In this document: piece by piece, positions 5,391 through 61,890 of the stretch
How the letters are laid out: every line of letters starts with the position of its first letter
Position numbering within the stretch: position 1 is the stretch's first letter
Source of the DNA: a virus
Lineage: Duplodnaviria > Caudoviricetes
Length of the DNA stretch: 64,000 nt
Strand: one strand, 5' to 3'
Virus record (IMG/VR): IMGVR_UViG_3300030095_005813
Span: 1 to 64,000 of that record
Made by a program: the position numbers and the translations under genes
The notes under the pieces: generated by a model
Database searches by the model: none
What the model was told of the DNA's origin: nothing
Seen by the model: only the letters and a program-made list of their open reading frames with translations

Positions 5391-5410
5391 GTGATTTAAA
5401 TCACAATCTA

Positions 5411-6376: not shown

Positions 6377-6381
6377 AAAGC

Positions 6382-6411
6382 TTGACTTATATAGGTAAAG
6401 TTCCGTATATT
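6382..6411 (+). promoter_or_regulatory. sigma70-type promoter
   Basis: AAAGC-TTGACT-N18-TATATT. Confidence 0.75.
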
Positions 6412-6439
6412 GTAACAATATAAAATTAGGAGAAACACT

Positions 6440-6655
6440 ATGAAGTGTATGATGAGTGTGGATGGTTCAAACATTGTTAGAGTATCTGATGATAAAGCAA
6501 GTGAATTATATCACGAAGGTTTTAGATATGTATCTAAATCTGTATGGAAAGAAAAAGTTCGTGATGTAGAAACAAAGCTTGAAATAGAATCTGATAATAA
6601 AAAATCTAATAAATTATCTAAGGCACAAAAAAGACATTTGAGAAAATCTAATTAG
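6440..6655 (+). CDS. hypothetical protein
   Basis: AGGAG SD; directly downstream of promoter. Confidence 0.7.
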   Translation: MKCMMSVDGSNIVRVSDDKASELYHEGFRYVSKSVWKEKVRDVETKLEIESDNKKSNKLSKAQKRHLRKSN

Positions 6656-6657
6656 TA

Positions 6658-6999
6658 ATGAATAAAGAAATTATTTACACTATATTGATATTTTTTTTCA
6701 ATAATATAATAATATGGTTTCAATTAAATGGTCAATTATTTTCAAATACTTGGAAGGGTAATTCTGGATTAATTATAACTTTAATATTAGGCATCCCAAT
6801 AACTTATCTGTTTTGGTTAGCTACAAAATTAGGTTATCAAGGATTCGGTAATTTATGGGCAGTCAGATTTCTTGGATTCGCTACAAGTATGATTACATTT
6901 CCATTCTTAACATATTTTTTTCTTGGTGAACCAATGGGATTAAAAACAATTATAACTTTAGGATTAGCAGTTATTATAATGTTATTACAATTACTATAA
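6658..6999 (+). CDS. small 4-TM membrane protein, DMT/EamA/SMR-like
   Basis: Four hydrophobic helices; FFLGEPM...IITLGL pattern typical of DMT proteins. Confidence 0.6.
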   Translation: MNKEIIYTILIFFFNNIIIWFQLNGQLFSNTWKGNSGLIITLILGIPITYLFWLATKLGYQGFGNLWAVRFLGFATSMITFPFLTYFFLGEPMGLKTIITLGLAVIIMLLQLL

Positions 7000-7000
7000 T

Positions 7001-7045
7001 AATATATAATAATATAATATATAATAATATAATATATAATAATAT
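7001..7045. repeat. pure A/T tandem repeat, 3 x AATATATAATAATAT
   Basis: Exact 15-bp units at 7001, 7016 and 7031 with degenerate flanks. Confidence 0.85.
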
Positions 7046-7076
7046 AATAACTATATAATAATTAATAGGAGATTAA

Positions 7077-44100: not shown

Positions 44101-44532
44101 GGTAAAATTGGTGGTTTTGATATTACATCAAATCAATTAAGTATTGATAATATTAAGTTATCATCATTAGAAAAAGGTTTAGTAATTAGTAGTAGTGATG
44201 GTCAAGGAAAGGTATTGATTTCATCTGGAAGTTTATCTTCTACGGTTGGGTCAACAACAAATTATTTTGTTACACCAAGTTTTGAAGGGCTATCAACTGA
44301 TTTAGTAATAACTGGTTCACACGGTGGTACCTCAGTAGGTGCATGGCATATAAAAAATGATACAGCTACAGGAAGTAGAAATGAAGAATTATGGAACTCA
44401 GGTTCAGTTTCAATGAGTCTTTCTGATACAAGTGGCCAGGCAGGAGATGGTTCGATTCATTTAAGAATAAATGTGAAAAGAGAATTAGGCCCTCCAGGTT
44501 CAGGATTAACAGACGGGTTTGACCCAGAATAA
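38200..44532 (+). CDS. large tail fibre/adhesin with LamG domain
   Basis: ITASGDISASG, IGIGT..P and G.IGGF repeats; MYHLVTTY...LYLN...YEGYLDEVRLY LamG motif; GGAG SD plus TTG. Confidence 0.8.
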   Translation: MSDGIKRFPPEFDSTKKYPRQYDLEQIDVYVEASPGEYFNINGLPENIGFGKHAFTIFVTDAEGGAPLKNFSNVLFEAKDSAGNLIYSGVSNKQDLSGASVCFIWIKEDPITTTNDIQQGIGSLTLVGQLQDVPTQYQNVYNVRTTFPLNIRTDFLNTSPILFQSSSKIASDLTITETLEADIDNPNFNKSYANITIKNLETFGGEVETIQVSYLESGSLSVLQDEEFTLLTQQRVNKVSGSFEDDIDFRISRGLNPISQSLRVVMPPMANQSGSNFGLGDNKFKFKFEFLNKNNEKAKDFDSGEDLNITSSFVDFVGPATVITGENNLIAGQMYVGNSVGQGLEVSAENSAFLRSIGYLGFTSASAGSGSGFMLYSGSVLAANTDDYQQGGVGFEFVSSSEAFMRFNTNPGIFDVRAKSFFVGSETTQFISGSGTNIEISASGFHLTPEGNVTMSGQLAVEAGGTLGGFTIGEDALFTSNFRLSSSVNNNDPVSFISSSKFKVSAGGVLTASAAFIEGAIITGSTSIDVGNDIKVKGVKVAALNINNEITLGGDTAQLTASSAIINDLTYSDMSGSFISASGIRLDGNMVVDGTVTANTFVTNTIQENFSTGNTIFGNSNDDIHAFTGSVVIQHTGSSNTGLLLSGSDLKVVGDISASGILITGLGISMPDSKGIAFTDTGIGDMQLVGASNKLAIYSGSFPKIIFDVSQSATPKIGIGTTAPTKALQVTGDISASGDIFLGHNKFLRNNVGDTALLGEFGNIVYIGSINHKTLFQGDTTNGIQFGQNTSIPLVMKGHITASGDISASGNLIATGDLNIDGKSHFEGNITASGNISSSGNIYASKYYLHPTKDTFIGSLDDGDDVNIESVDDIRLRPTDDISIHHGTTEYVRFDGGNQRVGIGTDSPSEKLHIDGNVRTNTTQGYYGSFVQAISNAGLKLGNDDYSGFMFFKDDGKIGIGTESPSEKLDVDGNIKTTGNISSPSFQSGFAGSGFRITSGSDGKTSFAVDDLTVRGQMNVFEMLIHQVRATNGSLFVSNTGRIISASLENASTKQYKLFFDTGSGYGHSFRVGDVIRAQRFTPAVSGDNDGVTDGPASYKSDLTIESVTGISESIARLTGSNGTTDAPTAGYEYVRIGSISDTDRQGSIYLTADDDDAPFIDVADGIKTHAGFNTTGTVKTRMGKLTGITSAKFGTLSGYGFYSSGSSFLEGAINADKGSVGGWSLSNSIISSSNITLDSVNEKITIENTTFGAAGVQLENDSGGKLYAGDGSNKFLQFDGTNALIKASNFELDSSGNITASNALLSGKLTSTEGAIGGFTINEKSLSSTNFTLSASTATNELFISHSSFKVKNSGQVTASALLLTGSANTNFLQFTNGVLTIRGDVAASSLSTTNFNVNSAGQITASAGTIGGFTISSTSLTSGSKIVLDASQSLFSINDRTFGNDGIQLDFNGGSPRAFIGNKTGSHFNFDGTNVFISSSKFLLGSGEQFISGSGGKLQIRAQDVVLSGSSVRVQTDDFFLGGQGSFISGANDQIEITSSQFHLDRDGNATFGGDIKVGSQPSQTNLNDGLILHYNFDQYSSEQQPGARFPLRNNVEEFRDMTADISIGNGSIEASSGSNAIVNTGLFFSGSDRTKTITLDHDTINSDMIDTNNYSLSFFFKPVNVAREGDPPQQIFGAGGSSNGFNAFITASKIITNFYETDKGSVTSASIANNTMYHLVTTYEGGEAKLYLNSELIQTDNISVGTITGFSGKIFLGGFTSNQEYYLTSGSVPINFSGTQQPYEGYLDEVRLYKGKVLTQNEVRAIFLNPQANVSNVVNGGQIEAGIIKSLNSSATAGTILNLQAGELHAGGSGSSARFLFDGTQLRVSASNFFVGSESFISGSGTNIEISSSGFHLKPEGDAIFSGSITANDGTIGGFTLGTTKLTTTGFEIGNSSTDFALSSSKFQVTHDGQLTGSQVLVDGGKIGGFDITSNQLSIDNIKLSSLEKGLVISSSDGQGKVLISSGSLSSTVGSTTNYFVTPSFEGLSTDLVITGSHGGTSVGAWHIKNDTATGSRNEELWNSGSVSMSLSDTSGQAGDGSIHLRINVKRELGPPGSGLTDGFDPE

Positions 44533-44574: not shown

Positions 44575-47500
44575 ATGTCATTTACACGACTAAAAAAATA
44601 TGATTTTGCAGTATCACAATCTATTAGTGGTAGTTTTACTATTGGTGATACGGTTGAGGCATCCTTTTTAGCTAAAGCTAATAATGTAAATGTAAATTCA
44701 CATACAACACAATTTGTTGATTTAAAATATTCTGTGTTAAGTGAAAGTATTGATTTAAAAGAATTTCCTAAAGGCACATTTCCTGAAAGATTTTATATTG
44801 GTAATAGTTATGTTACAAAAAGTTTTGTGGCAGGTATACCAGAAGAAATACAATATGTTCAATTCACATTAACAGGTTCAATAAATTCTACAGGTTCACA
44901 CACTTATAGTAGTGGTGGCCTTTCATATGCAAATGATTTACAATTAGATTATGATGCATTTCAAATAAAAGTACACAGACCTAAAACAGAATTAAAAGAT
45001 ACAGGATTATTAGTATTTACATCTCCAAGTAAATATATAAAAGCAGATTCAGATGGTGTTGAAATAAAAGGTGGTCAAATTCAAGCAGACAAGTTGACGG
45101 TAGAAACATTAGAAGTATTTGGAGACGCTGCAATATTTGGTGATGTTACAGCTACAGCAAATTCACCATACACAAGTACACCTAATTTAGTAGGTTTATC
45201 AGGTAGCCAAGGTAGTGTAGCTACATTTGCTAGAGGTGACCATCAACATGCTTTACCTTTTTCAACAATCAATACTTTAGCTCAACAAAATGAATTTACA
45301 AAAATAAGTGGTTCAAAAACTTCAACTGGTTCATTCGGTGAAATAGAAGTGCATATAGGAGGAACTGCAAATAATTCATTAACAATATCAGATGTATCTA
45401 CTGGTATAGGTAGACCAAATCTTTCATCAGAAAATACAATATTCATTCAACAAGGAACTTCTAATCAAACACAATTTGGAGGTGATGTTATACCTACTTC
45501 AACTAACACAAAAGATTTAGGTTCAGCTGGAAGACAATGGGCAGAATTCCATGCTGTTTCATCATCAGTTAGTCATTCCATAGTTAGTAGTAAAGTTGGT
45601 ATTGGAACATTATTTCCACCAAAACCATTAACCGTAGAAGGTGACATAAGTGCTAGTGGCCACTTTTTTCTTGGTCACGACAAATTTCTTTATAATAATC
45701 TTGGTGATACAGCATTAATAGGAGAATTTTCTGGATTAGTTTACATTGGAAGTATAAACCATAAAACATTATTTCAAGGAAATAAATCTAATGGTATACA
45801 ATTTGGTCAAAATACATCAATACCATTAGTGATGGAAGGACAAGTAACTGCAAGTGGAGAAATAAGTGCAAGTGGAATAATTACTTCACCTAATATCTTA
45901 GCTATAACAACAACTACAGGTTCTCTTTTAAGTAGTATAGATTCAATATCTACCACGACTGGTTCATTGTTAACAAGTATTGATACAATATCTTCAATTA
46001 CCAGTTCTTTATTCGCTACAACAGGTTCATTGTTAGCAAGCATCGATACAATATCTACTACAACTGGTTCATTATTAGCAAGCATCGATACAATATCAAC
46101 AACAACTGGTTCATTGTTAACAAGTATTGATACAATATCAACAACAACAGGTTCATTGTTAACAAGTATTGATACAATATCAACAACAACTGGTTCATTA
46201 TTAAATAGTGTAGATTCAATATCAACAACAACAGGTTCATTGTTAAGTAGTGTTGACTCTATATCTGCTACCACTGGTTCATTACTTAATAGTATTGACG
46301 AAATATCTTTAACAACTGGTTCATTATTAAATAGCATAGCTTCTATATCAACCGTAACAGGTTCATATGCTATAACAGGTAGTGATGTAACATTTGGTAA
46401 TGTAACTTTAGGGGAAATAACTGCAAGTGGGAATGTAAAAATAGATGGTGATATAAGTTCAAGTGGAACTTTAAGAATTTCAACAATTCGAGATGCAAAT
46501 GATGAGGGTTCTTCATCTGATTTATCAGTAGATGCAGCTAATTTATTAAACATTGGTTCTTCTCAAGCAGATGAAATAAATATTGGTAGACAAGACAATA
46601 CATCAGTCGATATTAACTTGTATGCAGGTTCATCAACACCATCAATAAGAATGATAAATAAAGGTATTAAAATTAATCATCCAATAACTGCAAGTAGTAA
46701 TATAAGTTCAAGTGCTAATATTGAAACACTTCACACTGGTTCATTTGGAAAAGGATTTTTTAAAGGAAGAGTTGGAATCGGAGTAACAAATCCAAATACA
46801 GAGTTAGAAATTTATAGTGCTAATTCAGAAGCATATCACTATCCATTAGTGTTAAGGAATCCATATAATAGTGAAACTAATCTTGACTATGGTGTTGGAA
46901 TAAAATTTCATCTTGATGATGCTAATGATAATAAGTTTGGTTCTATAGCATATGAAGCTCAAACAAGTTATGCCAACATAGGTAACTTAAAATTTTATGT
47001 AGACCAAAATGATACTACAACACCAATAGCAACAATGACCACAACTGGTTTAGGAATTGGAACAACAACTCCATCAGCTAAACTAACAATAGAAGGTGAT
47101 GTTGCAATAAGTGCAAGTGGTGATATTGATATTGCAAATGAAAAAAGAATTAGATTTGCAGCTAGTGATGGAACATATTCAGATGATGGTTCAATAAGAA
47201 GAGCTAGTGGTGAAGCCATAAGATTTAGATATGATAAAAATGCTTTTATTTTTGATGCTATAGAAAATGATAATTGGGAAATAAGAAATAGTGGTGATTC
47301 ACCAGTATTTAGAGTAAATACAAACAATGGTACTTCTATCTTTAGTGGTAGTGCTGGTCAGTTTTTCAGTTTAGAACACAACACAGGACACATTGGTATT
47401 GGGGTATCAAATCCAACTGCACCACTGCATGTTGAAAATGATGGTTCGGTTAGTAATCTTCTAGCATATTTTAAAAGTGGAGACCAAGCGGCAAAATTAA

Positions 47501-50500
47501 GATTAGAAGATGATGATACTATGGCTTATTTTAATGTTCTTGATGACACCATTAGATTCAACTTTTCAAGTGATGCTTCACACGCTGGTTTAACAATAAA
47601 ATCAGGAAGTACAACGGCAGTAAATGTTGGTATAGGAACAACAAGTCCAGACTACGCATTAGATGTGGTTGGTGATGTTGGTATTGATAAATTTATATAT
47701 CATAATGGTGATGATGATACATTCTTTAAATTTCAAGATGCTGAAGACAATATACAACTTTCAGCTGGTGGTTCTCATCTTAACTTTACATCTACAGGTT
47801 TAGGTGTTGGTGTAACTGCTACAGAAAAATTTGATGTTGATGGTAATATAAAAGCTAGAGGTAACATTTCATCACCAACTTTCTTTAGTGGTTTTGCTGG
47901 TAATGGTTTTAGAGTAACTTCTGGTTCAAAATATTCTTTAGAAGTTGATGATTTAACCGTAAGAAATTCAATGTCAGTATTTGAATTACTAATACATCAA
48001 GTTAGAGCAACAAATGGTTCTCTGTTTGTTTCAAATACTGGTAAAATAATTTCAGCTTCTAAAACCTCTAATTATTCTGAAGACCATCGTGAATTTAATT
48101 TATTCTTTGATACAGGTTCAAATTACGGACATTCATTTTTAGTTGGTGATTTGATTAGAGCACAAAGATTTCAACCTTCAACTAATGGTTCTGGTTCTCA
48201 AGTGTTTAAATCAGATTTTCACATCATTGGTGTAAATGGTACAACTTCATCTTTAGCAAGATTAACTGGTTCAGATGAGCCTGAAATAGGTTACGAATAT
48301 GTAAGAATTGGAAGTACAACAAACACAGATAGACAAGGGTCTATTTATATGACTGCTGATGATGAGAATGCTCCATTCTTAGATGTAGTTGATGAATTAA
48401 CAGCTCATAGTCAATTCAATACAGCAGGTAAAACAAAAGTAAGATTGGGTAAGTTGAGTGGTATCACTACAACAACATTTGGAACATTACCTGGTTATGG
48501 ATTTTATGCAAGTGGTAGTGCTTATCTTGAAGGTTCAATAAATGCTACTGCTGGTGAAATTGGTGGGTTTGGAATAAATAAGTCTACAATATCAAGTTCA
48601 AATGGTAATTTAAAATTATTTAGTGATGGTGTAATATCAGGTTCAGATGTACATTTTAATGGTGGTACAATTGGTGGATTTACAATTGATTCTGATGAAA
48701 TTAAAGCTGGTTCAACTTTAGTATTAGATTCTGATACAAATAGTGGAGAAATAAAATTAGGTGGTGCATCAGATATTACAACTGGTGATGGTATCTATAT
48801 GGCTGGTGATAAAAAGTTTAGAGTAGGACAAGCATCAGATAACTTTATAAGATTTAACAATACTGCAAATAAATTAGAAATAAAAACACCTTCATTAACT
48901 TTAGATTCAAGTGGAAACTTAACTACAATTGGAACAATATCATCAAGTGCAGGTAACATTGGTGGTTGGACAATCGATACAGATAAACTTGCCAAATCTA
49001 ATTTATTTGAATTAGCACCTAATGCAACTTATGTGATTTCATCATCTAATTTCAAAGTCAGTAATGCAGGAAGTATAATAGCAACCGCTGGTACAATTGG
49101 TGGATTTGGATTAGGTGCAACAACAATTTCATCCTCAACAGGTACTTTGATATTAACAAATACTGGACAAATTACAGCTTCAGATGCAGACATAACTGGT
49201 AAAATAAATGCCACATCAGGACAATTCAGTGGTGATGTTATAGCTACTCACATCAATACTGATAGTGGTTCAATTGGTGGATTCACAATTGATGGTCATT
49301 CATTGACAACAGATGGTGTTGAAATTAATAAAACAGGTCAATCATTATTTATTAGTTCGAGTGATTTCAAAGTAAGTCATACAGGTGAATTAACAGCTTC
49401 AAATGTAAGAGCTGATGGTGGAACTATTGGTGGATTTGCAATTGATGAATCAACATTAAAATCAACTGGTAATAACATTATTATAGATGCTGTTTCCAAT
49501 GATGGTAAAATAACAATTGGTAATATTGGATTTGGCCAAAAAGGTATTCAATTAGATAACAATAATGGCCATCCAAAATTTTATGTTGGTGATGGTGGAA
49601 CCACTATGGGTTCTGATAACTTTATTAGTTTTACATCTCAGAACGGACTTTTAGATGTTAGTAGTCCTACATTTCAATTAGATGCATCAGAAGGAACTGC
49701 ATTTTTAAGTGGGTCAATAAGTGCAAGTGCAGGTGAAATTGGTGGATTTTCTTTAGGGATAAATAAAATATCAAGTAAAAATTTAATTCTTTCATCATCA
49801 ACAGATACAAATGAATTTATAATATCAGCAAGTAATTTTAATGTGAAAGCAGGCGGACAAATTACTGCATCAAATATACGAACAGATGGTGGTACGGTCG
49901 GTGGATTTACAATAGATGAAACATCCATTAGTTCAAATGGATTAACATTAAAGTCTAATGGACAATTAACAGGTTCTGCTGTTTCAATGAGTGGAACAAT
50001 TGTAACTGATGATATATCAGCTACAGGTGGTACAATTGGAGGATTTACATTAGATACTAATTTAAAAGCTGGTAATGATGGAGCAGGTGGTTCTGCTATT
50101 GATATTAATCCATCAACACCAAGTATTAAATTAGGAGCCAAAGAATCTATAGCTGATAATGATGGTGATACAGGTGCATTCTTAACTGACCAAGCAATTG
50201 CAATAGGACCACAATCAGCAACTCAAGGATTTAGAGTTACAAGTCAAGGTGTAGTTACTGCATCTAATGCATTAATAAGAGGTAATTCTCAAGTAGCTGG
50301 TTTTGATGTTTCAGATTCACAAATATCATCTCAAGCAGGAACATTAGTATTAAAATCAAGTGGACAAATAACTGCTTCAGCTGTATCAATGAGTGGTCAT
50401 ATAATAGCAGATAGTGGAATAGTAGGTGGATTTTCCATTGATAATAATGAAATCAGTTCTTCTGGCATCTTAATACAACCATACGCAGGTTCAGCAGTAA

Positions 50501-51069
50501 CACCTTCAATTGAATTGGGTGGAAAATCTCAGGCTCTGAGCTCTAATCCAGGCGTTTTTATTGGCAAAAATGTATTTTTTGGTGCTGGGTATGGTATAGC
50601 AATTGGAGATACAAATGTTATAAGTGGAACTGAACCTGGCGGGTTTGTAGCTGCAACAGGTACTGATAGTGATGATAATGTTGTTGCATTTGGCCAAATT
50701 AAATCTGCTTATGCTGAAGCTGTAGGTAATACATCATATGTAATGTATAGACCAACTTCAGGTTTATTAATTCAACATCCAAACTTTAGTTTAAGAGATG
50801 GTCAACTACAAATAAGTGCATCAGGTAATAAACCAACAAATATAAAACTTGCAAGTGATGGTATAAGCACTGGAATAGAAATAGGTAATAAAACAGGAAT
50901 AGTTGGTCACGGTGATGTTACATCACATGCATTTCAAACACACGATGGTAATTTTCAATTTGGTGAAGATACTATTTCAGTACCTGGTGGTGGTGGAGGT
51001 GCTCAATATGGTACAGATGGTACTTTAACAAAAGGTGGGGAAAATCAATATAATCCATCTGGTGATTAA
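44575..51069 (+). CDS. large tail fibre protein, partly paralogous to upstream gene
   Basis: Same repeat types; shared LIHQVRATNGSLFVSNTG block; 14-aa tandem repeat. Confidence 0.8.
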   Translation: MSFTRLKKYDFAVSQSISGSFTIGDTVEASFLAKANNVNVNSHTTQFVDLKYSVLSESIDLKEFPKGTFPERFYIGNSYVTKSFVAGIPEEIQYVQFTLTGSINSTGSHTYSSGGLSYANDLQLDYDAFQIKVHRPKTELKDTGLLVFTSPSKYIKADSDGVEIKGGQIQADKLTVETLEVFGDAAIFGDVTATANSPYTSTPNLVGLSGSQGSVATFARGDHQHALPFSTINTLAQQNEFTKISGSKTSTGSFGEIEVHIGGTANNSLTISDVSTGIGRPNLSSENTIFIQQGTSNQTQFGGDVIPTSTNTKDLGSAGRQWAEFHAVSSSVSHSIVSSKVGIGTLFPPKPLTVEGDISASGHFFLGHDKFLYNNLGDTALIGEFSGLVYIGSINHKTLFQGNKSNGIQFGQNTSIPLVMEGQVTASGEISASGIITSPNILAITTTTGSLLSSIDSISTTTGSLLTSIDTISSITSSLFATTGSLLASIDTISTTTGSLLASIDTISTTTGSLLTSIDTISTTTGSLLTSIDTISTTTGSLLNSVDSISTTTGSLLSSVDSISATTGSLLNSIDEISLTTGSLLNSIASISTVTGSYAITGSDVTFGNVTLGEITASGNVKIDGDISSSGTLRISTIRDANDEGSSSDLSVDAANLLNIGSSQADEINIGRQDNTSVDINLYAGSSTPSIRMINKGIKINHPITASSNISSSANIETLHTGSFGKGFFKGRVGIGVTNPNTELEIYSANSEAYHYPLVLRNPYNSETNLDYGVGIKFHLDDANDNKFGSIAYEAQTSYANIGNLKFYVDQNDTTTPIATMTTTGLGIGTTTPSAKLTIEGDVAISASGDIDIANEKRIRFAASDGTYSDDGSIRRASGEAIRFRYDKNAFIFDAIENDNWEIRNSGDSPVFRVNTNNGTSIFSGSAGQFFSLEHNTGHIGIGVSNPTAPLHVENDGSVSNLLAYFKSGDQAAKLRLEDDDTMAYFNVLDDTIRFNFSSDASHAGLTIKSGSTTAVNVGIGTTSPDYALDVVGDVGIDKFIYHNGDDDTFFKFQDAEDNIQLSAGGSHLNFTSTGLGVGVTATEKFDVDGNIKARGNISSPTFFSGFAGNGFRVTSGSKYSLEVDDLTVRNSMSVFELLIHQVRATNGSLFVSNTGKIISASKTSNYSEDHREFNLFFDTGSNYGHSFLVGDLIRAQRFQPSTNGSGSQVFKSDFHIIGVNGTTSSLARLTGSDEPEIGYEYVRIGSTTNTDRQGSIYMTADDENAPFLDVVDELTAHSQFNTAGKTKVRLGKLSGITTTTFGTLPGYGFYASGSAYLEGSINATAGEIGGFGINKSTISSSNGNLKLFSDGVISGSDVHFNGGTIGGFTIDSDEIKAGSTLVLDSDTNSGEIKLGGASDITTGDGIYMAGDKKFRVGQASDNFIRFNNTANKLEIKTPSLTLDSSGNLTTIGTISSSAGNIGGWTIDTDKLAKSNLFELAPNATYVISSSNFKVSNAGSIIATAGTIGGFGLGATTISSSTGTLILTNTGQITASDADITGKINATSGQFSGDVIATHINTDSGSIGGFTIDGHSLTTDGVEINKTGQSLFISSSDFKVSHTGELTASNVRADGGTIGGFAIDESTLKSTGNNIIIDAVSNDGKITIGNIGFGQKGIQLDNNNGHPKFYVGDGGTTMGSDNFISFTSQNGLLDVSSPTFQLDASEGTAFLSGSISASAGEIGGFSLGINKISSKNLILSSSTDTNEFIISASNFNVKAGGQITASNIRTDGGTVGGFTIDETSISSNGLTLKSNGQLTGSAVSMSGTIVTDDISATGGTIGGFTLDTNLKAGNDGAGGSAIDINPSTPSIKLGAKESIADNDGDTGAFLTDQAIAIGPQSATQGFRVTSQGVVTASNALIRGNSQVAGFDVSDSQISSQAGTLVLKSSGQITASAVSMSGHIIADSGIVGGFSIDNNEISSSGILIQPYAGSAVTPSIELGGKSQALSSNPGVFIGKNVFFGAGYGIAIGDTNVISGTEPGGFVAATGTDSDDNVVAFGQIKSAYAEAVGNTSYVMYRPTSGLLIQHPNFSLRDGQLQISASGNKPTNIKLASDGISTGIEIGNKTGIVGHGDVTSHAFQTHDGNFQFGEDTISVPGGGGGAQYGTDGTLTKGGENQYNPSGD
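45913..46365 (+). repeat. coding tandem repeat, about 10 units of 42 bp (TTGSLLxSIDxIST)
   Basis: Visible in DNA and protein; one offset partial unit. Confidence 0.9.
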
Positions 51070-54074: not shown

Positions 54075-54624
54075 ACTATATACGGATAAACAAGAAACAT
54101 TTGAATGTGATTTATTCTTAGAAGGAGCAGATTTAAAAGAATCAAGTGCTAGAATTGTTGTTGAATCAGAAGACTTGACATTAATGTTCAAGGGTACAAT
54201 TGATGATAAAGGAAATTGTAAAGTACCTATCAAAAAATTAAAAGGATTAATGAGTGAAAACACTACAGGTGATATTAAACTTGAAGTGATTGCAGAAGAC
54301 ACTTTGATTGAACCTTGGCAATCTGATTTCATTGTCGATACTGCTAAGAAAGTAACGGTTGAGATTAAATCTCAAAAACAATCAAAACCACAAATCAAAG
54401 AATCTACAAAACCACAAGTAAAGGTTAAATCAGTTAAAAATTATACAAATCCAATAAATGAAATGGTTAAAGTATTAATTGAAAACGATATAACAATAGA
54501 CAAAGTGTTACAGAATAAGAAAAAAATTGCTCCAATATTAAACAATTATGCTAACACTATTAATTATCAAGGGGGAACTCAAAAGTTCATAAAAGAAGTA
54601 ATTAATAAATTAGCAAAAACTTAA
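54067..54624 (+). CDS. hypothetical protein with beta-sandwich-like N-terminus
   Basis: GGAG SD; operon context. Confidence 0.7.
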   Translation: MYKLYTDKQETFECDLFLEGADLKESSARIVVESEDLTLMFKGTIDDKGNCKVPIKKLKGLMSENTTGDIKLEVIAEDTLIEPWQSDFIVDTAKKVTVEIKSQKQSKPQIKESTKPQVKVKSVKNYTNPINEMVKVLIENDITIDKVLQNKKKIAPILNNYANTINYQGGTQKFIKEVINKLAKT

Positions 54625-54635
54625 AGGTTATATAA

Positions 54636-55184
54636 ATGTCGTTTGATTTAACGAATAAGAATATCCAAGATACCTTTCAGAATCTATTACAACAGACTGG
54701 GAGTACTGGTGAGGTTTATGATTTAGAAGGTAATCAGGTTACAGATTTAAATATTGCCACTATCAGTTCTTCTGCTGTAAATACTTCGGTAGTAGACATA
54801 CCAAATGGTAGTGACCAAGCAGGTAATAAGTTACATTCAAGAAGTGGAACACTTTATTTTGGTGATACAAATCTTGAAACTGGTGGTAGTGGATTATCAA
54901 ATGTAGTTGAAGACACAACACCACAATTAGGTGGAAATTTAGATTTAAATTCACAAACCATTAATGGTAGTGGAAATATAAATTATTCAGGTAGTATTGA
55001 AATAAACACAAGTAATGCTACAGATGATTTCTTTTTATTGAAATCAGGTAGTTTGAATAGTTTGAAGGTAAATAATCAAGGTGTTCTACAATTAGGAGCA
55101 TTTTCATTTACACCTACAGCAGTAAAAGGTGGAATGTATTATGATGATGATGATGATGAATTTTATGCAGGAAAACAGAATTAA
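54636..55184 (+). CDS. short tail-fibre-like protein
   Basis: VVEDTTPQLGGNLDLNS motif seen in phage fibre proteins. Confidence 0.65.
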   Translation: MSFDLTNKNIQDTFQNLLQQTGSTGEVYDLEGNQVTDLNIATISSSAVNTSVVDIPNGSDQAGNKLHSRSGTLYFGDTNLETGGSGLSNVVEDTTPQLGGNLDLNSQTINGSGNINYSGSIEINTSNATDDFFLLKSGSLNSLKVNNQGVLQLGAFSFTPTAVKGGMYYDDDDDEFYAGKQN

Positions 55185-55243
55185 AATTAATGAAAAATAA
55201 TTTTTATATATACTTATATATGAAGTATTAATAGGAGAATATT

Positions 55244-56896
55244 ATGGCCGAATGGAAAAAGATAATAACAAGTGGTAGTCATGCTGAACTGGCAGGAGTT
55301 ACTGGTTCTAAAGGATTTCACGGTTCCGGAACAGATTTAACATTTTCAGATACTGCTATGGTAACTGGGGATGCTTTAGTATTTGTAGATGCTGATGGTG
55401 GAACTAAAAAAGATAATATCTCCGATGTTGTTACTTTACTTGCAGGTGATGGTATACAAAATTCATCTAATAAATTTGCAATTGATGTTGATGTTATGGC
55501 AGGTGTAGGTTTAACTGCAGACAATACAAATGAAGAATTAGATGTAAGTTCAGCTCAAACAGGTATTCAAACTATTTACAATACTGGTCTTATCATTGGT
55601 AGAGCTGAAGACGATACAACTATAAACTTTACAGCAGATGATACAATTGTACTTGATGCAGGAAGTACGGCAGCTTTAACAGCTACTACTGCTGGTATTA
55701 GTGTAACAACTACAGGTTCAATATCTCGTGTTGAATCAACACAAATTTCAAGTTCAAATGTATTGTCAACTACATTGACTGCAACTTCAGCCTCAATTAA
55801 CACTATTGGTGCATTCACCTTAGGTGGGAAATTAACAGCTGGTACTATAGAAATTGAAGGTAGTAATTTTGACATCAATGGTGGAACAATTGATGGAATC
55901 ACATCATTAACTGCTGGTGGAAATTTAGATATTGGTACACACGATTTTAGAGCACGAAACTTAACAGCTGATGCATTAGCAGCAGGTAAAGTATTATTTA
56001 CAGGAACTGCAGGTTTATTATCAGTAGATTCAAATTTTTCATTTGCTAGTGATACACTAACAGCAAAATCAGGTTCATTTGATGCTATTTCTTCTGAAAA
56101 CATTTCAGGTTCATTAAGAGGTGATGCAGACATAAATGTATTAAATGTAGTTGGAACAGGTTCAGCTGGTTATTTAACTGCTGTAGAAATAAGTGGTTCA
56201 TTTAGAGGTGATGGTTCTAATCTATCAGGTGTCGGTTTTCAAATTGACGAATTATCTAATACACTTACTGCAGTTGCTCAAGATGATTTATTAGTAGTAG
56301 CTGATGTAGACGATTCAAATGAAGAAAAGAAAATAACTTTTTCAAATTTTGAAGACCAAATATTTTCAAATATAAATGCAGCATCTTCAGACATAGCAAT
56401 AGTGGCAGGAGGAGCAATAACACTTGCAAACAATTCAGTTGGAAACGATGAGATGGCTGATGACGCAATTGGAAACGCCGAGTTAAAACAAAACGAAGAT
56501 ATAACTTTACAGGCTTTAACCACAACTAATAATCTTTCAGTAGGTGGAAATGCAATCATAACAGGTGACTTAACCGTAAATGGTGAAACCACGGTAGTAT
56601 CATCTTCAAATCTTGAAGTAAGAGATAGATTTATATTATTGAATAGTGGTTCAAATGCTGGTGATGGTGGTATTATTGTTCAACACGGAAGTACTGGTTC
56701 AGGTTCAGCTTTTGCATATGATGTGTCTGTTAATAGATGGGGATTCCCAAAATCAGGTTCAACAGGAAAAACAGAACATACCGTTTCTCCAGAAGCATAT
56801 GTTTCAGCAGTTGTAACAGATGATAATGAAGCAGAATTTAGAAAAAACGGAAACATCAGAGTTCAAAGTGGTGAAATTTTTATTTTTGTTGAATAA
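55244..56896 (+). CDS. tail fibre-like protein
   Basis: MAEWKKIITSGS start; GDLTVNGETT..SSNLEVRDRFILLNSG domain. Confidence 0.75.
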   Translation: MAEWKKIITSGSHAELAGVTGSKGFHGSGTDLTFSDTAMVTGDALVFVDADGGTKKDNISDVVTLLAGDGIQNSSNKFAIDVDVMAGVGLTADNTNEELDVSSAQTGIQTIYNTGLIIGRAEDDTTINFTADDTIVLDAGSTAALTATTAGISVTTTGSISRVESTQISSSNVLSTTLTATSASINTIGAFTLGGKLTAGTIEIEGSNFDINGGTIDGITSLTAGGNLDIGTHDFRARNLTADALAAGKVLFTGTAGLLSVDSNFSFASDTLTAKSGSFDAISSENISGSLRGDADINVLNVVGTGSAGYLTAVEISGSFRGDGSNLSGVGFQIDELSNTLTAVAQDDLLVVADVDDSNEEKKITFSNFEDQIFSNINAASSDIAIVAGGAITLANNSVGNDEMADDAIGNAELKQNEDITLQALTTTNNLSVGGNAIITGDLTVNGETTVVSSSNLEVRDRFILLNSGSNAGDGGIIVQHGSTGSGSAFAYDVSVNRWGFPKSGSTGKTEHTVSPEAYVSAVVTDDNEAEFRKNGNIRVQSGEIFIFVE

Positions 56897-56905
56897 GAGG
56901 TATGA

Positions 56906-57109
56906 ATGGCATTAAACTTTAAAGGTGGTTTCAAAGTAGGTGGTGTTGAATATCGTCACCCATTAACATCAGAAGAGATAAGATTTATTTTAGAAATTTT
57001 TAAAAAATGTAATTTTACAGGTGAAGAAATGGAAAACTTAATTGTTGTCACTATGAAATTACAAGAAGAATATAATAAGGTTTTAGAAAAAGAACAACAG
57101 ACAAAGTGA
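56906..57109 (+). CDS. small hypothetical protein, possible fibre chaperone
   Basis: GAGG SD; lies between two fibre genes. Confidence 0.65.
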   Translation: MALNFKGGFKVGGVEYRHPLTSEEIRFILEIFKKCNFTGEEMENLIVVTMKLQEEYNKVLEKEQQTK

Positions 57110-57171
57110 TTATTGGCCCAATGTGTGGCAACATTGGGAAGTGGGCTTAATCAGAAGTAACCAACCATAAT
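57109..57171 (+). ncRNA. candidate cis-regulatory structured RNA
   Basis: GC-rich island; perfect CCCAATGT/ACATTGGG stem, GCTT/AAGT stem and a closing helix that ends at the AGGAGG SD. Confidence 0.55.
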
Positions 57172-57183
57172 TAGGAGGAATCA

Positions 57184-60100
57184 ATGCCAAACTGGAAAAA
57201 AGTTATTACTTCAGGTAGTAATGCACAACTCAATCAAATTACAGCAAGTGGAGACATAAGTGTTGGTGATGCCACGGTAAAAACATTAACACTTACACAT
57301 CACACAGACGGGACTGATAGAAGTGCTTATCCTGGTAATTTCTATATGGGCAGTAACAATGTTATCAGTAGTGATGATAGTTTATATGTTGATGGGGCAT
57401 TTAGAGCTGGTGATGGTATATTTATTGTAAGTAATTCTCCAACAACTGATGAAGTTGTGACAATAGATGGAAATATGAATATTTCTTCACATATAACCGC
57501 AAGTGGAGACATAAGTTCAAGTGGTATAATTCATTCAAGTAGTTCTATAAAAACCAATTTAACTAAACTTGTGACTTATGATGACGCAACTGGTATATTT
57601 CACATAACTGCTTCAAGTGGGTTCGTTAATGGGGCTGGTGGTGGAACAACAACAAATGGTTTAACTGCTGGAACTGGTGTTGATATGGGTAATGGTACAG
57701 GTGGCCAGATATTCAATGGTGCATCTGCTTTGACATTAAATTTAGATTTAACTGAAGTTATTACATCCGATGGAGCTAATAGAGTTTTAACTTCTGATGG
57801 TGATGGGACTTTAACTGCAGAAGCTAATTTAGCTTTTGATGGTAATGGTGTAGATGTAACTGGTCACATAACCGCAAGTGGTACAATAAGTGCAAGTGGA
57901 ACAATTATTGCTGACGCCATTACAACTGGTAACTCTGCATTCCATAATGGTATATTCAATTCTGGTCCTGTCAATCCAAAATTAAAAATTAGTTCTTCAA
58001 ACGACATTTTAATAGAATCATCTGATGACATTTTTTTCAAATCAGATGGAACTACAATAGCTCAAATTAAAGGTGGTGAGGCTATACTTGATTTAAATGG
58101 AACATTAGATGTATCATCACACATAACCTCAAGTGGAAATATAAGTTCAAGTGGTATAATTAATGCAAGCGCATCTATAAAATCTAATTTGACTAAACTT
58201 GTTACATATGATGATGCAACTGGTATATTTCACATAACTGCATCATCTGGATTTGTTAACGGTGACGGTGGCGGTGATGGTGATATGACTGGAGTTGATT
58301 TGACTGGTGGTTCAGGAATAACGATTGGGAGTGAAACCAATACAACTTCAGGTGATTATTCAGCTACAATATCTGTTGCATCAGCTACAATTTCAGGTTC
58401 ATTTTTAGGACAAAATGTATTAAGTGGTTCTGCTCTTGAAGGTACGAGGACTATAATAAGTGGTTCAGTAAATTCAACTGGTTCATTTGGAAGAGTTGAA
58501 GCTGTTGGAATCATAACAGCTGAAGGTTTAGTAATTAGTGATGACGCTGAAATTACAGATGATTTAACGGTTAATGGTGATATAGATTTAGAAGGTGATA
58601 TTGATGTAAATGGAACAGCAAATTTAGATGCGGTTGATATTGATGGTAATGTTCAACTCGGCGGAAATCTCACCGTAGGTACTAATGGTTCAAGTCACGA
58701 TATTGAAGTGCATTCAAATACTTCAGGTAAAAAGTTTAACTGGCATGCAACTAATGCTTATATGAATTTTGTAGACAATACAAAACTCTCATTCGGAACA
58801 CCTGCGACTGCTGGTGGCTATGATAGTGCTATATATTCTGATGGTACGGTTAACCGATTTCAAGGTGTTATAGGTGATATACTATTGGATACTCATGGTG
58901 ATAATTGTAACCGAGTTTTTATTTCTGGTTCAGGTCAGAGTAATTTTGCAGTCCATGGACACATAACCGCAAGTGGAAACATAAGTGCTAGTGGTAATGT
59001 TATTACATCACAAGTTGGAAGTGCTGATGATGATTTACTTGTAAGAGGTGAGAATATTACAAACACATTAGATGTAGGTGGAGATTTTATTATTCAGGAA
59101 GGTGTTACTGAAAGATTAAAATTTGATGGTGGTGATGATAGTTTTACACTCACAGGAAACATAACCACAAGTGGAAACATAAGTTCAAGTGGAACAATCA
59201 TATCCAATGACATAACAGCCGATGCTGTAACTGGTGTGGATTCAATATTAAATACAGGTTTAAAAGTTGGTAGAGATTCTACGGATTTAATTGATTTTAC
59301 ATCAGATAATCAAATTAAATTTAGAGTTAATGATGTTAATGAATTTGTACTGGCAGAAAATATTTTCCGACCAGGTGGAAGTGGTGGTGCTGGATTGGGT
59401 AATTCTGCTAAAAAATGGTCTGAATTAGTTGTCAACCACATAACCGCAAGTAACAACATAAGTGCGAGTGGATTATTAATGTCAAGTGCATCTATAAAAG
59501 GCAATTTAACTAAACTTGTTACATATGATGATGCAACTGGACAATATCATATAACTGCCTCAAGTGGATTTGTCAATGGAAGTAGTGGAGGTGGTTCAGG
59601 TGATATGACTGGTGTCGACTTAACAGGTGGAACAAATGTATCAATTGCAAGTGAAACTAATACAACATCAGGTGATTATTCAGCAACAATAAATCTTGAT
59701 GATTCAATAACTCTTGCTGGTGATTTTTTACAAAGCGGTCCCGGAGCAGGAAACTATGTTAGTTCAAGTCAAGGTAATTTAGAATTAAGTGGAAGTGGTA
59801 AAGGACAATTAGAAGTTGATTACAGATTATTCGATACTGGTTCAGGAGGTGTTGCAGGTTCTGTAGGTCAAGCTGTAGGTGATGTTATTAAATTTGGTGG
59901 TTCAGTTACATCTCCAGGAAGATTATATCATTTAACTGGAACTGGTACTTGGTCCACAACACGAAGAGATATAGTAGGTTCTTGTACAGGCTCTTTGGCT
60001 ATAGCATTAGGGACTAATTCAACAAATGATGGTATGATGATAAGAGGTATGGTTAGTTGTTCTACTCAATTTTCATATTCATCATCAATAGGGGGACCTG

Positions 60101-60240
60101 TTTACATAGGTAGTTCAGCAGGAAAAATAAATAATACCGTATCATCTACAAGTGGTGACATAGTAAGAGTTGTAGGCCATAGTTATGGTAATGGTGTTGT
60201 TTATTTTAATCCTGATAACACATTTATTGAAGTTGCATAA
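57184..60240 (+). CDS. modular tail fibre protein
   Basis: MPNWKKVITSGS start; many HITASG.IS.SG junctions; three internal repeats; C-terminal IVRVVGH...YFNPDNTFIEV. Confidence 0.8.
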   Translation: MPNWKKVITSGSNAQLNQITASGDISVGDATVKTLTLTHHTDGTDRSAYPGNFYMGSNNVISSDDSLYVDGAFRAGDGIFIVSNSPTTDEVVTIDGNMNISSHITASGDISSSGIIHSSSSIKTNLTKLVTYDDATGIFHITASSGFVNGAGGGTTTNGLTAGTGVDMGNGTGGQIFNGASALTLNLDLTEVITSDGANRVLTSDGDGTLTAEANLAFDGNGVDVTGHITASGTISASGTIIADAITTGNSAFHNGIFNSGPVNPKLKISSSNDILIESSDDIFFKSDGTTIAQIKGGEAILDLNGTLDVSSHITSSGNISSSGIINASASIKSNLTKLVTYDDATGIFHITASSGFVNGDGGGDGDMTGVDLTGGSGITIGSETNTTSGDYSATISVASATISGSFLGQNVLSGSALEGTRTIISGSVNSTGSFGRVEAVGIITAEGLVISDDAEITDDLTVNGDIDLEGDIDVNGTANLDAVDIDGNVQLGGNLTVGTNGSSHDIEVHSNTSGKKFNWHATNAYMNFVDNTKLSFGTPATAGGYDSAIYSDGTVNRFQGVIGDILLDTHGDNCNRVFISGSGQSNFAVHGHITASGNISASGNVITSQVGSADDDLLVRGENITNTLDVGGDFIIQEGVTERLKFDGGDDSFTLTGNITTSGNISSSGTIISNDITADAVTGVDSILNTGLKVGRDSTDLIDFTSDNQIKFRVNDVNEFVLAENIFRPGGSGGAGLGNSAKKWSELVVNHITASNNISASGLLMSSASIKGNLTKLVTYDDATGQYHITASSGFVNGSSGGGSGDMTGVDLTGGTNVSIASETNTTSGDYSATINLDDSITLAGDFLQSGPGAGNYVSSSQGNLELSGSGKGQLEVDYRLFDTGSGGVAGSVGQAVGDVIKFGGSVTSPGRLYHLTGTGTWSTTRRDIVGSCTGSLAIALGTNSTNDGMMIRGMVSCSTQFSYSSSIGGPVYIGSSAGKINNTVSSTSGDIVRVVGHSYGNGVVYFNPDNTFIEVA

Positions 60241-61013
60241 TGGCAAACATAAGTAAAATAAAAAAAGTACCTATAGATAATATTACAAAACTTTCTAACA
60301 GAACTTTAGCAGAAGGTGATTCTGTTTTAGGGTTATTGAAACCATCAGGTGGAACTCAAGTAATAGCATTATATAATTTTGAAGACCAAACCACTCAAGA
60401 AAGTGGTGCTAGTGATTGGAACCCATCTGGAACGCATTCAGGTTGGGAAACAGATACAGCAGTTGTTACTGGTGGTGGTTCTTGGGGTAATCCAGCAAGT
60501 AATGGAAACACAACAACAGATGGGTGGAATTTAGGTTTTGGTTCAACAACAAGTGGTGGAACAGGACCAACTGGTGCACTTCATGCTGATTTAGATGGTT
60601 CACACGATACAAGTGGAAGATATATGTATGTAGAAGGAACTGGTGTAAAAGATGATAGAGTTTGTGTTGTAAGAACTCCTGGATTTAATTTTTCAACTGC
60701 AATGAACAACACTGGTAATGATTTAAATTTAAAATTTTGGTTACATCAATATTCATCAAACAATAGTGGTCACAATTTATACATTTATATTGATGATTCT
60801 TCAACTTCTACTGAATCAGATGCTACTTTACTTCATACTATTACTGATTTTACTGAATATAATACTTTTAGTGCAAATTGGAGTCAAAAAACCGTGAGTT
60901 TAAATAGTTATAGAACAACAGATGCTACTCATTATATTTATTTTGTAGCAGATGGTGCAACAACTTTTAGATGTGATATTTGTATAGACAATGTTGAATT
61001 TAAGGAAGGTTAG
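60240..61013 (+). CDS. MAM-domain virion/adhesion protein
   Basis: YNFE...W...TGPTG...D.SGRYMYVE...RTP...LKFWLHQY...W....V.L...F...DICIDNV matches the MAM pattern. Confidence 0.75.
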   Translation: MANISKIKKVPIDNITKLSNRTLAEGDSVLGLLKPSGGTQVIALYNFEDQTTQESGASDWNPSGTHSGWETDTAVVTGGGSWGNPASNGNTTTDGWNLGFGSTTSGGTGPTGALHADLDGSHDTSGRYMYVEGTGVKDDRVCVVRTPGFNFSTAMNNTGNDLNLKFWLHQYSSNNSGHNLYIYIDDSSTSTESDATLLHTITDFTEYNTFSANWSQKTVSLNSYRTTDATHYIYFVADGATTFRCDICIDNVEFKEG

Positions 61014-61015
61014 AA

Positions 61016-61240
61016 ATGATTTGTGAATATTGTAATGAAAATATGAAAGATGGTACATATGTTTGTACAACAGAAGGTTATAGTGTTTTAGATAGCAATG
61101 ATAATTTAGTTCAAATTGTAGCTACTCATAGTGGTATACCTGCAGATGATGAAGAAGTAGATGAATCAGAACCTGTTAAGTATTGTAAATGTCAAGTATA
61201 TTTTTTAAATTACTACAGACCTAATTCAGGAGGTATCTAA
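61016..61240 (+). CDS. small Cys-containing hypothetical protein
   Basis: CEYC and YCKC motifs; tight operon spacing. Confidence 0.6.
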   Translation: MICEYCNENMKDGTYVCTTEGYSVLDSNDNLVQIVATHSGIPADDEEVDESEPVKYCKCQVYFLNYYRPNSGGI

Positions 61241-61242
61241 GT

Positions 61243-61890
61243 ATGCCTTATGTAGATATATTACCTGGTGATTCAACAGCTGTTGGTTATAGTGATGAAA
61301 CAGATAGTGGAACGAGTGGTTGTGTAACACATGCTGGTAATGCACTTACAGATAATGGTACTAATTGTCTTGTTCAAAGAAATGATGGAACTGGTGGAGT
61401 AGCTGTAGGTGCTTGTTACAATGGTGTTATAGAACTTATTTGGGACGATGCAGGCTCTTTACCAGATGGTGTATCAATAAATGGTATACAATTTATTTTT
61501 GAATGTAAAGGTAATTTATATGATTTAACTGATGGTGTGCAATATAGAGTATCAACAGACGGAGGTAGTAATTATTCATCGTATCAAGATGCTGACTTGA
61601 CTGGTATGGCAAATAATAAAGCTTCAACATTATCAGTTATAGCTGTCCCATCTTCTGCAGCAGGTAATCCACCATTTGGTGTATCTGCTACATTAAATAA
61701 ATCTGGATTAGAAACTGAACAACTTAAACTAAGATTTAAACTTAATTCATTAAATCCTAATACAAGTAGATTCAATGTTGACTATGTTAAGGCAAGAATA
61801 CATTATGCAGTATCTAACCCTGAGATAAATACACGATGTGCAATTGGTGGTGTTTTAAGTATAAAAGGTGGAAGTTTACTAATTAAATAA
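61243..61890 (+). CDS. hypothetical beta-sandwich virion protein
   Basis: GGAGG SD; YRVSTDGGSNYS Asp-box-like motif; VDYVKARIHY. Confidence 0.65.
   Translation: MPYVDILPGDSTAVGYSDETDSGTSGCVTHAGNALTDNGTNCLVQRNDGTGGVAVGACYNGVIELIWDDAGSLPDGVSINGIQFIFECKGNLYDLTDGVQYRVSTDGGSNYSSYQDADLTGMANNKASTLSVIAVPSSAAGNPPFGVSATLNKSGLETEQLKLRFKLNSLNPNTSRFNVDYVKARIHYAVSNPEINTRCAIGGVLSIKGGSLLIK

Follow-up and report, generated by a model that had tools for sequence, protein, structure and literature searches.

Among the intergenic gaps of one stretch of phage DNA, a single gap of 74 nucleotides (nt) just ahead of a tail-fibre-like gene is conspicuously rich in guanine and cytosine (G+C), and the question that this locus raises is whether the gap encodes a structured RNA and what such an RNA would do for the gene behind it. 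The stretch, called the window throughout, comprises the 64,000 nt from positions 1 to 64,000 of the IMG/VR record IMGVR_UViG_3300030095_005813 (Duplodnaviria; Caudoviricetes). The gap (57110-57183) separates a small open reading frame (ORF) of 67 amino acids (aa) from a 1018-aa gene whose product begins with MPNWKK, the fibre gene of this text. It holds 42% G+C, against 5-31% in the 18 other gaps of at least 15 nt and 31.7% in the whole window, where nearly all genes lie on the + strand; the contrast had been noticed, with exact letters and coordinates, in a first-pass annotation of this DNA, which proposed that the gap folds as a three-way junction and serves as a translational operator, switch or processing site setting fibre stoichiometry. 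To our knowledge, few phage-specific structured RNAs are known, and none is tied to a host-recognition protein. We show by sequence comparison that the three-way-junction RNA is real and under selection and that it represents a new, uncatalogued family of cis-acting leader RNAs of ~50-70 nt. The function that we favour is that of a translational gate acting in cis on the MPNWKK fibre gene, to which we would give an even chance of being right.

Taken alone, the window sequence has base composition as its sole unusual trait, and its fold is not beyond chance. The minimum-energy fold computed with RNAfold is indeed the three-way junction including all three helices (P1, P2 and P3; Table 1), that is, the closing helix, the 8-base-pair (bp) stem and the short stem that the first-pass annotation had drawn. 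The stability of this fold nevertheless speaks against a special structure: compared with dinucleotide shuffles, a 96-nt segment has a z of +0.10, with 93 of 200 shuffles at least equally stable, and a 75-nt segment a z of -0.14 (81 of 200). Inverted repeats are also common in the window, with 369 pairs at 8-nt seeds no more than 40 nt apart. The element is judged to be more than chance because the same architecture is kept across 98 distinct sequences.

This comparative evidence was built from two samples. Relatives of the 67-aa ORF in three viral contigs all have the element between that ORF and an MPNWKK gene, and between these contigs and the window compensating changes are visible in both stems. 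For the first sample, a viral contig collection was scanned with a pattern of two conserved strings, which matched at least 119 stretches; the 119 listed, the three earlier loci and the window gave 123 pattern matches. Seven of the 123, lacking the upstream GGCC, were left out, and the remaining 116 yielded 102 unique sequences, of which four G+C-rich chance matches without flanking helices were dropped. The same three helices form in each of the 98 distinct sequences that were left and, among the matches listed, 93 of them place the element directly before an MP(N/S/A)WKK start. Their alignment by MAFFT (A1), which was not fitted to any structure, pairs in 95.0% of cells against 80.0% in column shuffles (~94-95% in the comparisons overall), with 311 cells changed on both sides against 99 in the shuffles and compensatory change at 15 of 25 pairs. 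The covariation score of 0.296, compared with 0.102 for shuffled columns, was reached by none of 500 shuffles, and slid registers gave at most 0.071, which makes this an unusually clean record of covariation. Within P1, for example, pair 5-67 is A-U in 78 sequences, G-C in 15 and U-A in 4, and pair 2-70 occurs as five pair types.

Because our own search pattern had fixed the junction in the first sample, a second one was drawn by the fibre start codon only, with 90 new loci in addition to the window and nine earlier loci. Among the matches listed, the exact core was found at 50 of the 121 start sites with enough flank, and nearly all others carried variant cores. The covariance model built from A1 recognized exactly one copy in 100 of the 100 sources of this sample, at 29-68 bits; in the window its single match covers 57108-57173 (59.9 bits, E 9e-17), the next best reaching 9.6 bits. 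Thirteen junction letters were invariant (G8, G9, C10, G32, G33, A35, G36, U37, G39, C80, A83, C84 and C85). Pairing that persists together with an invariant junction in this second sample therefore indicates that the structure is real and under selection. Homologous loci, where the first-pass annotation had suggested looking for conservation and covariation, provided both.

Table 1. Coordinates of the leader element, its parts and the adjoining genes in the window
Feature	Positions	Strand	Basis or remark
Three-way-junction RNA (P1, P2, P3)	57107-57173	+	covariance model and minimum-energy fold
P1 5' strand: UGAUUAU 57107-57113, bulged U57114, G57115, G57116	57107-57116	+	
P1 3' strand: CC, then AUAAUUA	57165-57173	+	C84 and C85 invariant
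P2: perfect 8-bp stem CCCAAUGU/ACAUUGGG, 6-nt loop GUGGCA	57117-57138	+	57117-57124 paired with 57131-57138
P2 loop letters UGGCA	57126-57130	+	exact reverse complement of UGCCA 57185-57189
J2/3, junction strand AAG	57139-57141	+	A35 and G36 invariant, A34 in 82/84 (start-codon sample)
P3: UGG/CCA, AA bulge, GCUU/AAGU, loop AAUCAG	57142-57163	+	pair statistics, start-codon sample
J3/1, junction strand, single A	57164	+	invariant, 84/84
Shine-Dalgarno site AGGAGG	57173-57178	+	first base is the last paired base of P1
67-aa ORF, helical-hairpin family	56906-57109	+	stop in P1 5' strand; ORF clustering, synteny
1018-aa MPNWKK fibre-like gene served by the leader	57184-60240	+	ORF
550-aa paralogous fibre-like gene MAEWKK, without RNA leader	55244-56896	+	internal contrast

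The invariant letters surround the meeting point of three helices whose outer parts vary. In the window, P1 consists of U57107-A57173, the G57108.U57172 pair and AUUAU 57109-57113 with AUAAU 57167-57171, followed beyond an unconstrained bulge (U 60, A 13, C 11 of 84) by G57115 and G57116 paired with C57166 and C57165. The length of P2 ranges from 2 to 9 bp, with compensatory change at 6 of 8 aligned pairs; at its base, C10 and G32/G33 are invariant in the start-codon sample, where 81 of 84 sequences also have C at position 11. P3, of 3-7 bp, joins UGG 57142-57144 to CCA 57161-57163 and, past the AA bulge at 57159-57160, continues as an outer stem closed by a G.U pair (57145-57148 with 57155-57158). 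The AAGTGG that had been read as a single strand must consequently be divided, since its UGG is paired: the junction pair 38-81 is G-C in 58 and A-U in 26 of the 84 sequences of the start-codon sample and unpaired in none. In the same sample, G40.U57 is G.U in 66 sequences and A-U in 17, and the inner P3 pairs occur as four to five types each. An alternative GCCCA/TGGGC pairing, proposed at first pass as excluding the 8-bp stem, is possible in the window but not conserved (covariation 0.065, against 0.061 shuffled); of its four pairs, one is broken in 18 and another in 30 of 84 sequences.

The same details bear on whether the signal belongs to RNA or to DNA. A conserved DNA sequence at the border of an exchangeable fibre cassette could be a recombination or homing-endonuclease target or a protein-binding site, and homing-endonuclease genes do lie between element and fibre gene in three loci, while the fibre bodies downstream are highly variable (67-2311 aa). 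The compensatory changes, however, preserve pairing and not sequence. G.U pairs are frequent (in A1, U.G occurs at pair 6-66 in 44 of 98 sequences and G40.U57 throughout), and they mark the sense strand because on the other strand they would read as A/C mismatches. The P2 loops include GNRA (65/153) and UUCG (4/153), both hallmarks of RNA, and stem lengths vary freely; together these traits fit an RNA read from the + strand and not a DNA site. The endonucleases more plausibly exploit DNA that was already conserved than explain why it is, and the DNA-level reading, largely refuted by this strand-specific covariation, appears to us scarcely credible.

Since no described class had been recognized in the element at first pass, we compared it with the 4227 covariance models of Rfam 15, retaining matches at E<=10. 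No family matched on the element's strand of window 56500-57800; of four weak matches of the small nucleolar RNA type, three lay away from the element and one (SNORD12) overlapped it on the opposite strand only. Ten element loci (39.6 kilobases, kb) gave one unrelated microRNA match. Neither the window region nor these ten loci matched the glutamine riboswitch (RF01739), the c-di-GMP-II riboswitch (RF01786) or GP20-a/b (RF02991, RF03003), nor the hammerhead, twister, twister-sister, pistol or hatchet ribozymes. No transfer RNA or transfer-messenger RNA was found in the window. A search for intrinsic terminators, that is, G+C-rich hairpins followed by a run of U, found 0 terminator-like sites in 54900-57400, in agreement with the view that the hairpins are not a terminator; the letters after the element are AUAAUUAGGAGG.

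The literature searched did not describe the motif and held no paper with GGAAGUGGGC or MPNWKK, matches to its DNA spelling being on unrelated subjects. Close relatives in kind are GP20-a/b (RF02991, RF03003) and the candidates of Fremin et al. 2023 (PMC10690425), which are likewise RNAs found by comparative genomics no more than ~25 nt upstream of one phage structural gene; they precede another gene and have another fold, and no Rfam match links them to the element. That article describes GP20 and GP32 leaders, and its main text mentions tail or fibre 0 times; it lists 10,006 candidates, partly from the same virus collection, so that the element may be there unnamed. The glutamine riboswitch, reported in marine myophages (PMC9004378), resembles the element as a small three-stem RNA of marine T4-like phages. 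It was tried as a candidate on the strength of its GGAAGU-like junction string, and was rejected: no glnA or Downstream-peptide match appeared at E<=10 in the window region or the ten loci, and the gene context differs.

How widely the element occurs was examined in phage and cellular sequences. The window record is a 114,459-nt viral contig, estimated to be 65% complete, with one copy of the element; the window also encodes a T4-type baseplate wedge protein, an SbcC-like nuclease and a primase. One copy each was present in five of five further records, among them a 186.6-kb contig (98% complete), a 156-kb contig (94%) and the complete 160-kb genome of the cultured Flavobacterium phage vB_FspM_immuto_3-5A (58 bits), whose host is Flavobacterium sp. 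LMO8. The copy of this phage, called immuto below, has a compensating change from G-C to A-U at inner P1 and stands between a promoter-like ATATTTATA and a fibre-like gene. BLASTN against 50,697 phage records found no match for the 3.3-kb region, and with 131-nt and 121-nt element queries it returned chance short matches and the immuto phages only. Among the genomes of 185,579 species, there were three true-like matches (59.9-65.3 bits), all on contigs of metagenome-assembled genomes; isolate genomes in that scan gave G+C-rich chance matches only, at 20-27 bits. The family is abundant in marine and freshwater viromes, each pattern scan returning at least 119 stretches, and the window stretch itself was found, whole or in part, in marine or aquatic metagenome runs from 11 studies. 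None of these runs is listed as RNA; of four whose contigs were compared with 56400-58000, one is presumably RNA and covers small shares only, which speaks neither for nor against transcription. Positions 1-6947 of one contig, from a Candidatus Pelagibacter metagenome-assembled genome (L217), are 99.94% identical to window 54532-61478; this Pelagibacter (SAR11) bin is a weak host hint or a binning artefact.

What the element may do is best approached through its position. In 145 of 153 nonredundant copies, the fibre start lies 12-27 nt after C65, and these 145 fall into different leader contexts. Class I (75/145) has a TATTTAT motif just upstream and no site resembling a Shine-Dalgarno (SD) sequence; class II (42/145), to which the window belongs, is without the motif, has an SD-like site, and the stop of the upstream ORF abuts P1. 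Both features are found in 18 of the remaining copies and neither in 10, and counted over all 145, an SD-like site is present in 60 and absent in 85. The window genes have strong AGGAG sites, in contrast to class I, whose leaders are SD-less and whose cultured representative is a Flavobacterium phage. The TATTTAT motif occurs within 60 nt upstream in 99 of 153 copies and in 84 of those ends 4-10 nt before P1. In the window, ATATTTATA is found 12 times where 4.9 are expected, and 8 of the 12 lie in gaps ahead of genes, which suggests that the TATTTAT-type motif is probably the phages' own, perhaps late, promoter. Neither a promoter-like motif nor a terminator was found between the 67-aa ORF and the fibre gene of the window. 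This recurrent motif, as (C)ATATTTATATATGAATAGG, stands in gaps before genes at window positions 11022, 23412, 44548 and 53700 (+), with a variant at 55185-55243, and in most of the other phages it is found ahead of the element.

Toward the start codon, 36 of the 60 copies that have an SD-like site place its first base within the 3' strand of P1, and the spacer from the last P1 pair to AUG measures 6-24 nt, with a mode of 8-11 nt in class I and of 11-12 nt in class II; the footprint of a 30S subunit spans an 8-12 nt spacer between P1 and AUG. The RNA thus overlaps or abuts the ribosome-binding site, as a translational operator does, and because it touches that site an operator or switch is the most natural reading. 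This part of the first-pass proposal has stood. The processing site that it offered as another option finds no evidence, and it fits poorly with the 75 of 145 copies that have a promoter-like motif ending shortly ahead of P1, because the RNA would there already be the 5' end of the transcript. Three loci differ by a conserved insert of ~110-125 nt between element and fibre start (L068 11541-11651, L127 3954-4064, L145 2385-2503), which contains two hairpins and, in L068, a possible 25-codon ORF; these three sequences gave neither covariation nor a supported structure.

The gate that we favour would work as follows. The RNA would be the last part of the leader of the fibre messenger RNA (mRNA) and would act in cis on initiation. 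Its weak, A-U-rich P1, ending 8-12 nt before AUG, would clamp the ribosome-binding region; where an SD is used, as by the phage of the window, P1 would include or touch it. That P1 is kept by covariation and is yet weak, rich in A-U and G.U pairs, fits a regulated helix. In long-armed forms, the apical loop UGGCA would also pair with the start region UGCCA. For the window, the end of the upstream ORF lies inside the occluding helix: its UGA (57107-57109) is in the P1 5' strand, and a terminating ribosome would therefore have to unzip P1 and so free AGGAGG. If upstream ribosomes open P1, translation of the small gene would therefore be coupled to fibre synthesis and would limit it, and it is plausible that the element sets fibre stoichiometry. 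The small-ORF stop ends 4-9 nt before G8 in 38 loci; the 75 copies of class I have no such upstream ORF end in the helix, and in these promoter-led forms the mRNA would begin with the same fold. Long-range RNA structure is known to couple translation in RNA coliphages and in ribosomal-protein operons, where, as in the window, the downstream ribosome-binding site is paired with the end of the upstream ORF. The element differs from those systems in that 75 of 145 copies have no ORF reading in and in that its conserved junction goes beyond what coupling needs. If the gate is true, it would be a new layer of control over virion assembly, and the occurrence of the same core in SD-using and SD-less contexts means that it may be a portable regulatory part.

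A fold at the very 5' end of a transcript could also protect it from decay. By this account, the compact junction would block degradation that depends on the 5' end, without control of initiation, as do the 5' stem-loops of stable bacterial mRNAs and the exonuclease-resistant junction folds of flaviviral RNAs, and the promoter-like motif, by its spacing from P1 and its enrichment ahead of window genes, would let the fold start the transcript. For such protection, however, a plain hairpin would suffice, and the junction here is invariant; the 42 class II copies, that of the window among them, have the fold in the interior of a polycistronic message; and other late genes of the same phages carry the promoter-like motif without the RNA. 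Initiation is indicated instead by the narrow and constant distance to AUG and by the SD overlap, and we regard stability as rather improbable as the function.

Further support for a role in initiation comes from the loops of the arms. In long-armed copies, the loop of the arm is complementary to the start region, as in the window (Table 1). Watson-Crick complementarity of at least 5 nt to positions -4 to +9 of the start occurs in 41% of the copies (60/145), whereas shuffled targets reach 11%, and control targets elsewhere in the same mRNAs gave 6/145 and 9/145. The complementarity follows the arms: it is present in 36 of 37 long-P2 copies, in 18 of 18 long-P3 copies and in 5 of 82 short-armed ones. 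The 42 long-P2 copies comprise 20 distinct stems and have UGGC in the loop of 35. A second lineage, with the core UAG/CUA, has a short P2 and a long P3, whose loop GGCAU(A) complements (U)AUGCC; GGCAU is in the loop of 19 of 19 long-P3 copies. The third base of the Pro codon after the start is A in 77, G in 10, U in 3 and C in 0 copies of the sample chosen by RNA core, compared with window-wide counts of 354 CCA, 219 CCT, 37 CCG and 18 CCC; this bias is consistent with a purine constraint, and initiation preferences could explain it equally.

Several observations weigh against the gate, and they concern its helices, its loops and its reach. The single-sequence minimum-energy fold has P1 in 71 of 145 copies and all three helices in just 66. 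The anti-start loops amount to two or three lineages and not to 54 independent events, and covariation cannot judge the pairing of loop and start because coding fixes the target. An alternative closing helix between the core UUGGC and the start GCCAA, which takes ~16% of the computed ensemble, was rejected as it is without covariation: the bulge base does not covary with the third position of the Pro codon. In class I, the commonest form (promoter-led, short-armed and SD-less), prediction leaves most of the start codon unpaired and no ribosome arrives from upstream, for which reason occlusion and coupling cannot be the whole function. Simple occlusion, finally, leaves ~20 invariant junction letters unexplained.

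Because the gate leaves both the invariant junction and the class I form unexplained, a further partner is likely, and the invariant junction (GG/CC, CC/GG, AAG, UGG/CCA, G.U and A) most likely offers it a surface to recognize or a tertiary core. Binding of a ligand or a protein there would make the junction a new RNA recognition motif. Taken further, the junction could sense either a small molecule or a phage protein not yet assembled and, set on a modular scaffold, decide whether P1 and, where arms are long, a pseudoknot between loop and start lock the ribosome-binding site of the fibre gene. We consider this possible, if on balance unlikely; were it true, it would be the first phage-specific riboswitch-like class dedicated to a virion protein, and one kept across phages whose hosts initiate with an SD (the window) and without it (the Flavobacterium phage).

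Another reading is a small-molecule riboswitch, in which a ligand in the junction would stabilize P1 and thereby close or open the ribosome-binding site, so that a metabolite or signal from the infected cell would govern synthesis of a receptor-binding protein. The element has a conserved aptamer-like fold with covariation support, and its anatomy, like that of translational riboswitches, combines an invariant junction with free peripheral stems and a marginal P1 reaching the SD; a platform in which P1 and SD share a strand could exist in the 36 of 60 SD-bearing copies mentioned above, but 85 of 145 copies have no SD-like site. A core kept in SD-using and SD-less phages would fit a universal small ligand, and the glutamine riboswitch of marine myophages is a precedent (PMC9004378). 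Translational riboswitches are set apart from the element by its restriction to phage DNA (as judged from the 185,579 species' genomes scanned), its single copy per genome and its service to a single gene family, the product of which has no evident link to a metabolite. It shows no variety of expression platforms, has no terminator form and matches no riboswitch family of Rfam, and we find a metabolite riboswitch improbable.

The partner might instead be a protein made by the phage, and the first-pass annotation had named the 67-aa product as a candidate. When all ORFs of 200 element loci were clustered, its family was found in 177 of them, and in 170 of the 185 whose flank measures 700 nt or more. 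In 171 of the 177 copies, no more than 650 nt lie between the end of this ORF and the element downstream. A second small family, similar in sequence pattern by eye, occurs in 69 loci. The AlphaFold2 model of the 67-aa protein (predicted local distance difference test of 81) has helices at 22-34 and 39-66, and its comparison with the PDB by Foldseek gave no match at E<=0.001. Neither Pfam nor PHROG returned anything above threshold for 81 members of the small-protein family, and a complex prediction of fibre N-terminus 1-60 with the 67-aa protein, at a score of 0.00, gave no answer.

On these data, an operator bound by a phage protein, either the 67-aa hairpin protein or, autogenously, the fibre N-terminus, that represses or activates initiation from the junction would explain the constant upstream neighbour, the restriction of the element to MPNWKK N-termini and the invariance of the junction, which suits recognition by a protein. 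The annotation of immuto calls the small ORF 'hypothetical protein' and three neighbouring genes 'structural protein'. The conserved hairpin, however, is not basic (family median net charge 0; window protein -1, isoelectric point 5.8), no RNA-binding family or fold was found for it in Pfam, PHROG or the PDB, and a role as fibre chaperone or connector would explain the synteny equally. As to the fibre N-terminus, the MAEWKK paralogue shares the WKK..SGS N-terminus and yet has no element. The evidence on the 67-aa protein is therefore mixed, with synteny for its involvement and charge against, and we hold an operator of this kind to be doubtful, at much the same level as protection from decay.

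Translational operators are nevertheless well represented among phages. The pseudoknot in the T4 gene 32 leader, the gene 43 hairpin and the RegA sites belong to them, and in Mu, the small protein Com, encoded just upstream of mom, alters the fold of the mom leader and permits its translation. Like the element, these are structured RNAs at the ribosome-binding site of a single phage gene, and the likeness to Com and mom extends to the small ORF that is the constant upstream neighbour in element loci. The element differs by its three-way junction, its invariant core and its presence in hundreds of uncultured phages, and its upstream protein, unlike Com, is not basic and lacks zinc-finger-like features. 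The function of the element is directly testable because a cultured pair exists, vB_FspM_immuto and Flavobacterium sp. LMO8.

The gene behind the element gave no Pfam, PHROG or PDB sequence match for its 1018-aa product in the window, and the Protein Atlas was uninformative. Among 10 members of the MPNWKK family scanned, two carry Peptidase_S74 and one Phage_tail_C, and 'fibre' is a reasonable name because relatives carry these domains; the immuto homologue is annotated 'putative tail fiber-like protein'. The downstream proteins have ~25-30 N-terminal residues in common and range in size from 67 to 2311 aa. The element was found upstream of none of 95 distinct MAEWKK-type starts, and in 40 loci it lies 1.2-5.6 kb downstream of such a start.

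The homing-endonuclease genes mentioned above are inserted exactly between element and fibre gene, at L008 1553-1795 (-), L114 1443-1643 (+) and L051 10525-11247 (-). Those of L008 and L114 are HNH endonucleases (22.4 and 23.6 bits, above the Pfam cut-off), and that of L051 is a NUMOD1-domain protein with a weak GIY-YIG match. Both HNH ORFs start with MPNY, reusing the first three codons of the fibre gene, and downstream of each endonuclease gene the fibre gene begins anew, with an SD of its own and a Pro codon CCU or CCC, and in two of them with a K to R change. This altered start looks like homing-site immunity.

Within the fibre gene, two segments with HITASG-type repeats (57480-57533 and 57858-57911) had summed depths of ~1400-6000 and 360-1700 in three metagenome runs, against 8-15 in the flanks, and many contigs join or loop between them; they look like a repeat common to many phages, at which assembly chimeras or recombination are frequent. 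Immediately behind the fibre gene, a 257-aa protein (60240-61013) has a sub-threshold MAM-domain match (25.2 bits, with a cut-off of 26.4) and is possibly an adhesion or receptor-binding module. Further upstream, two giant adjacent ORFs, 38200-44532 (2110 aa, with a TTG start in the ORF list) and 44575-51069 (2164 aa), are preceded by a 235-nt gap.

Other intergenic features of the window deserve mention. Terminator-like hairpins occur at 5391-5518 and 2057-2130: GGGGTTGCTTCGGTGGCCCC followed by a T run, with a UUCG-type loop, and AAAAAAGGTTCTG...CAGAGCCTTTTTT. Finally, the 77-nt gap at 7000-7076, with 5% G+C, contains tandem TAATATATAATAATA-like units before the gene at 7077.

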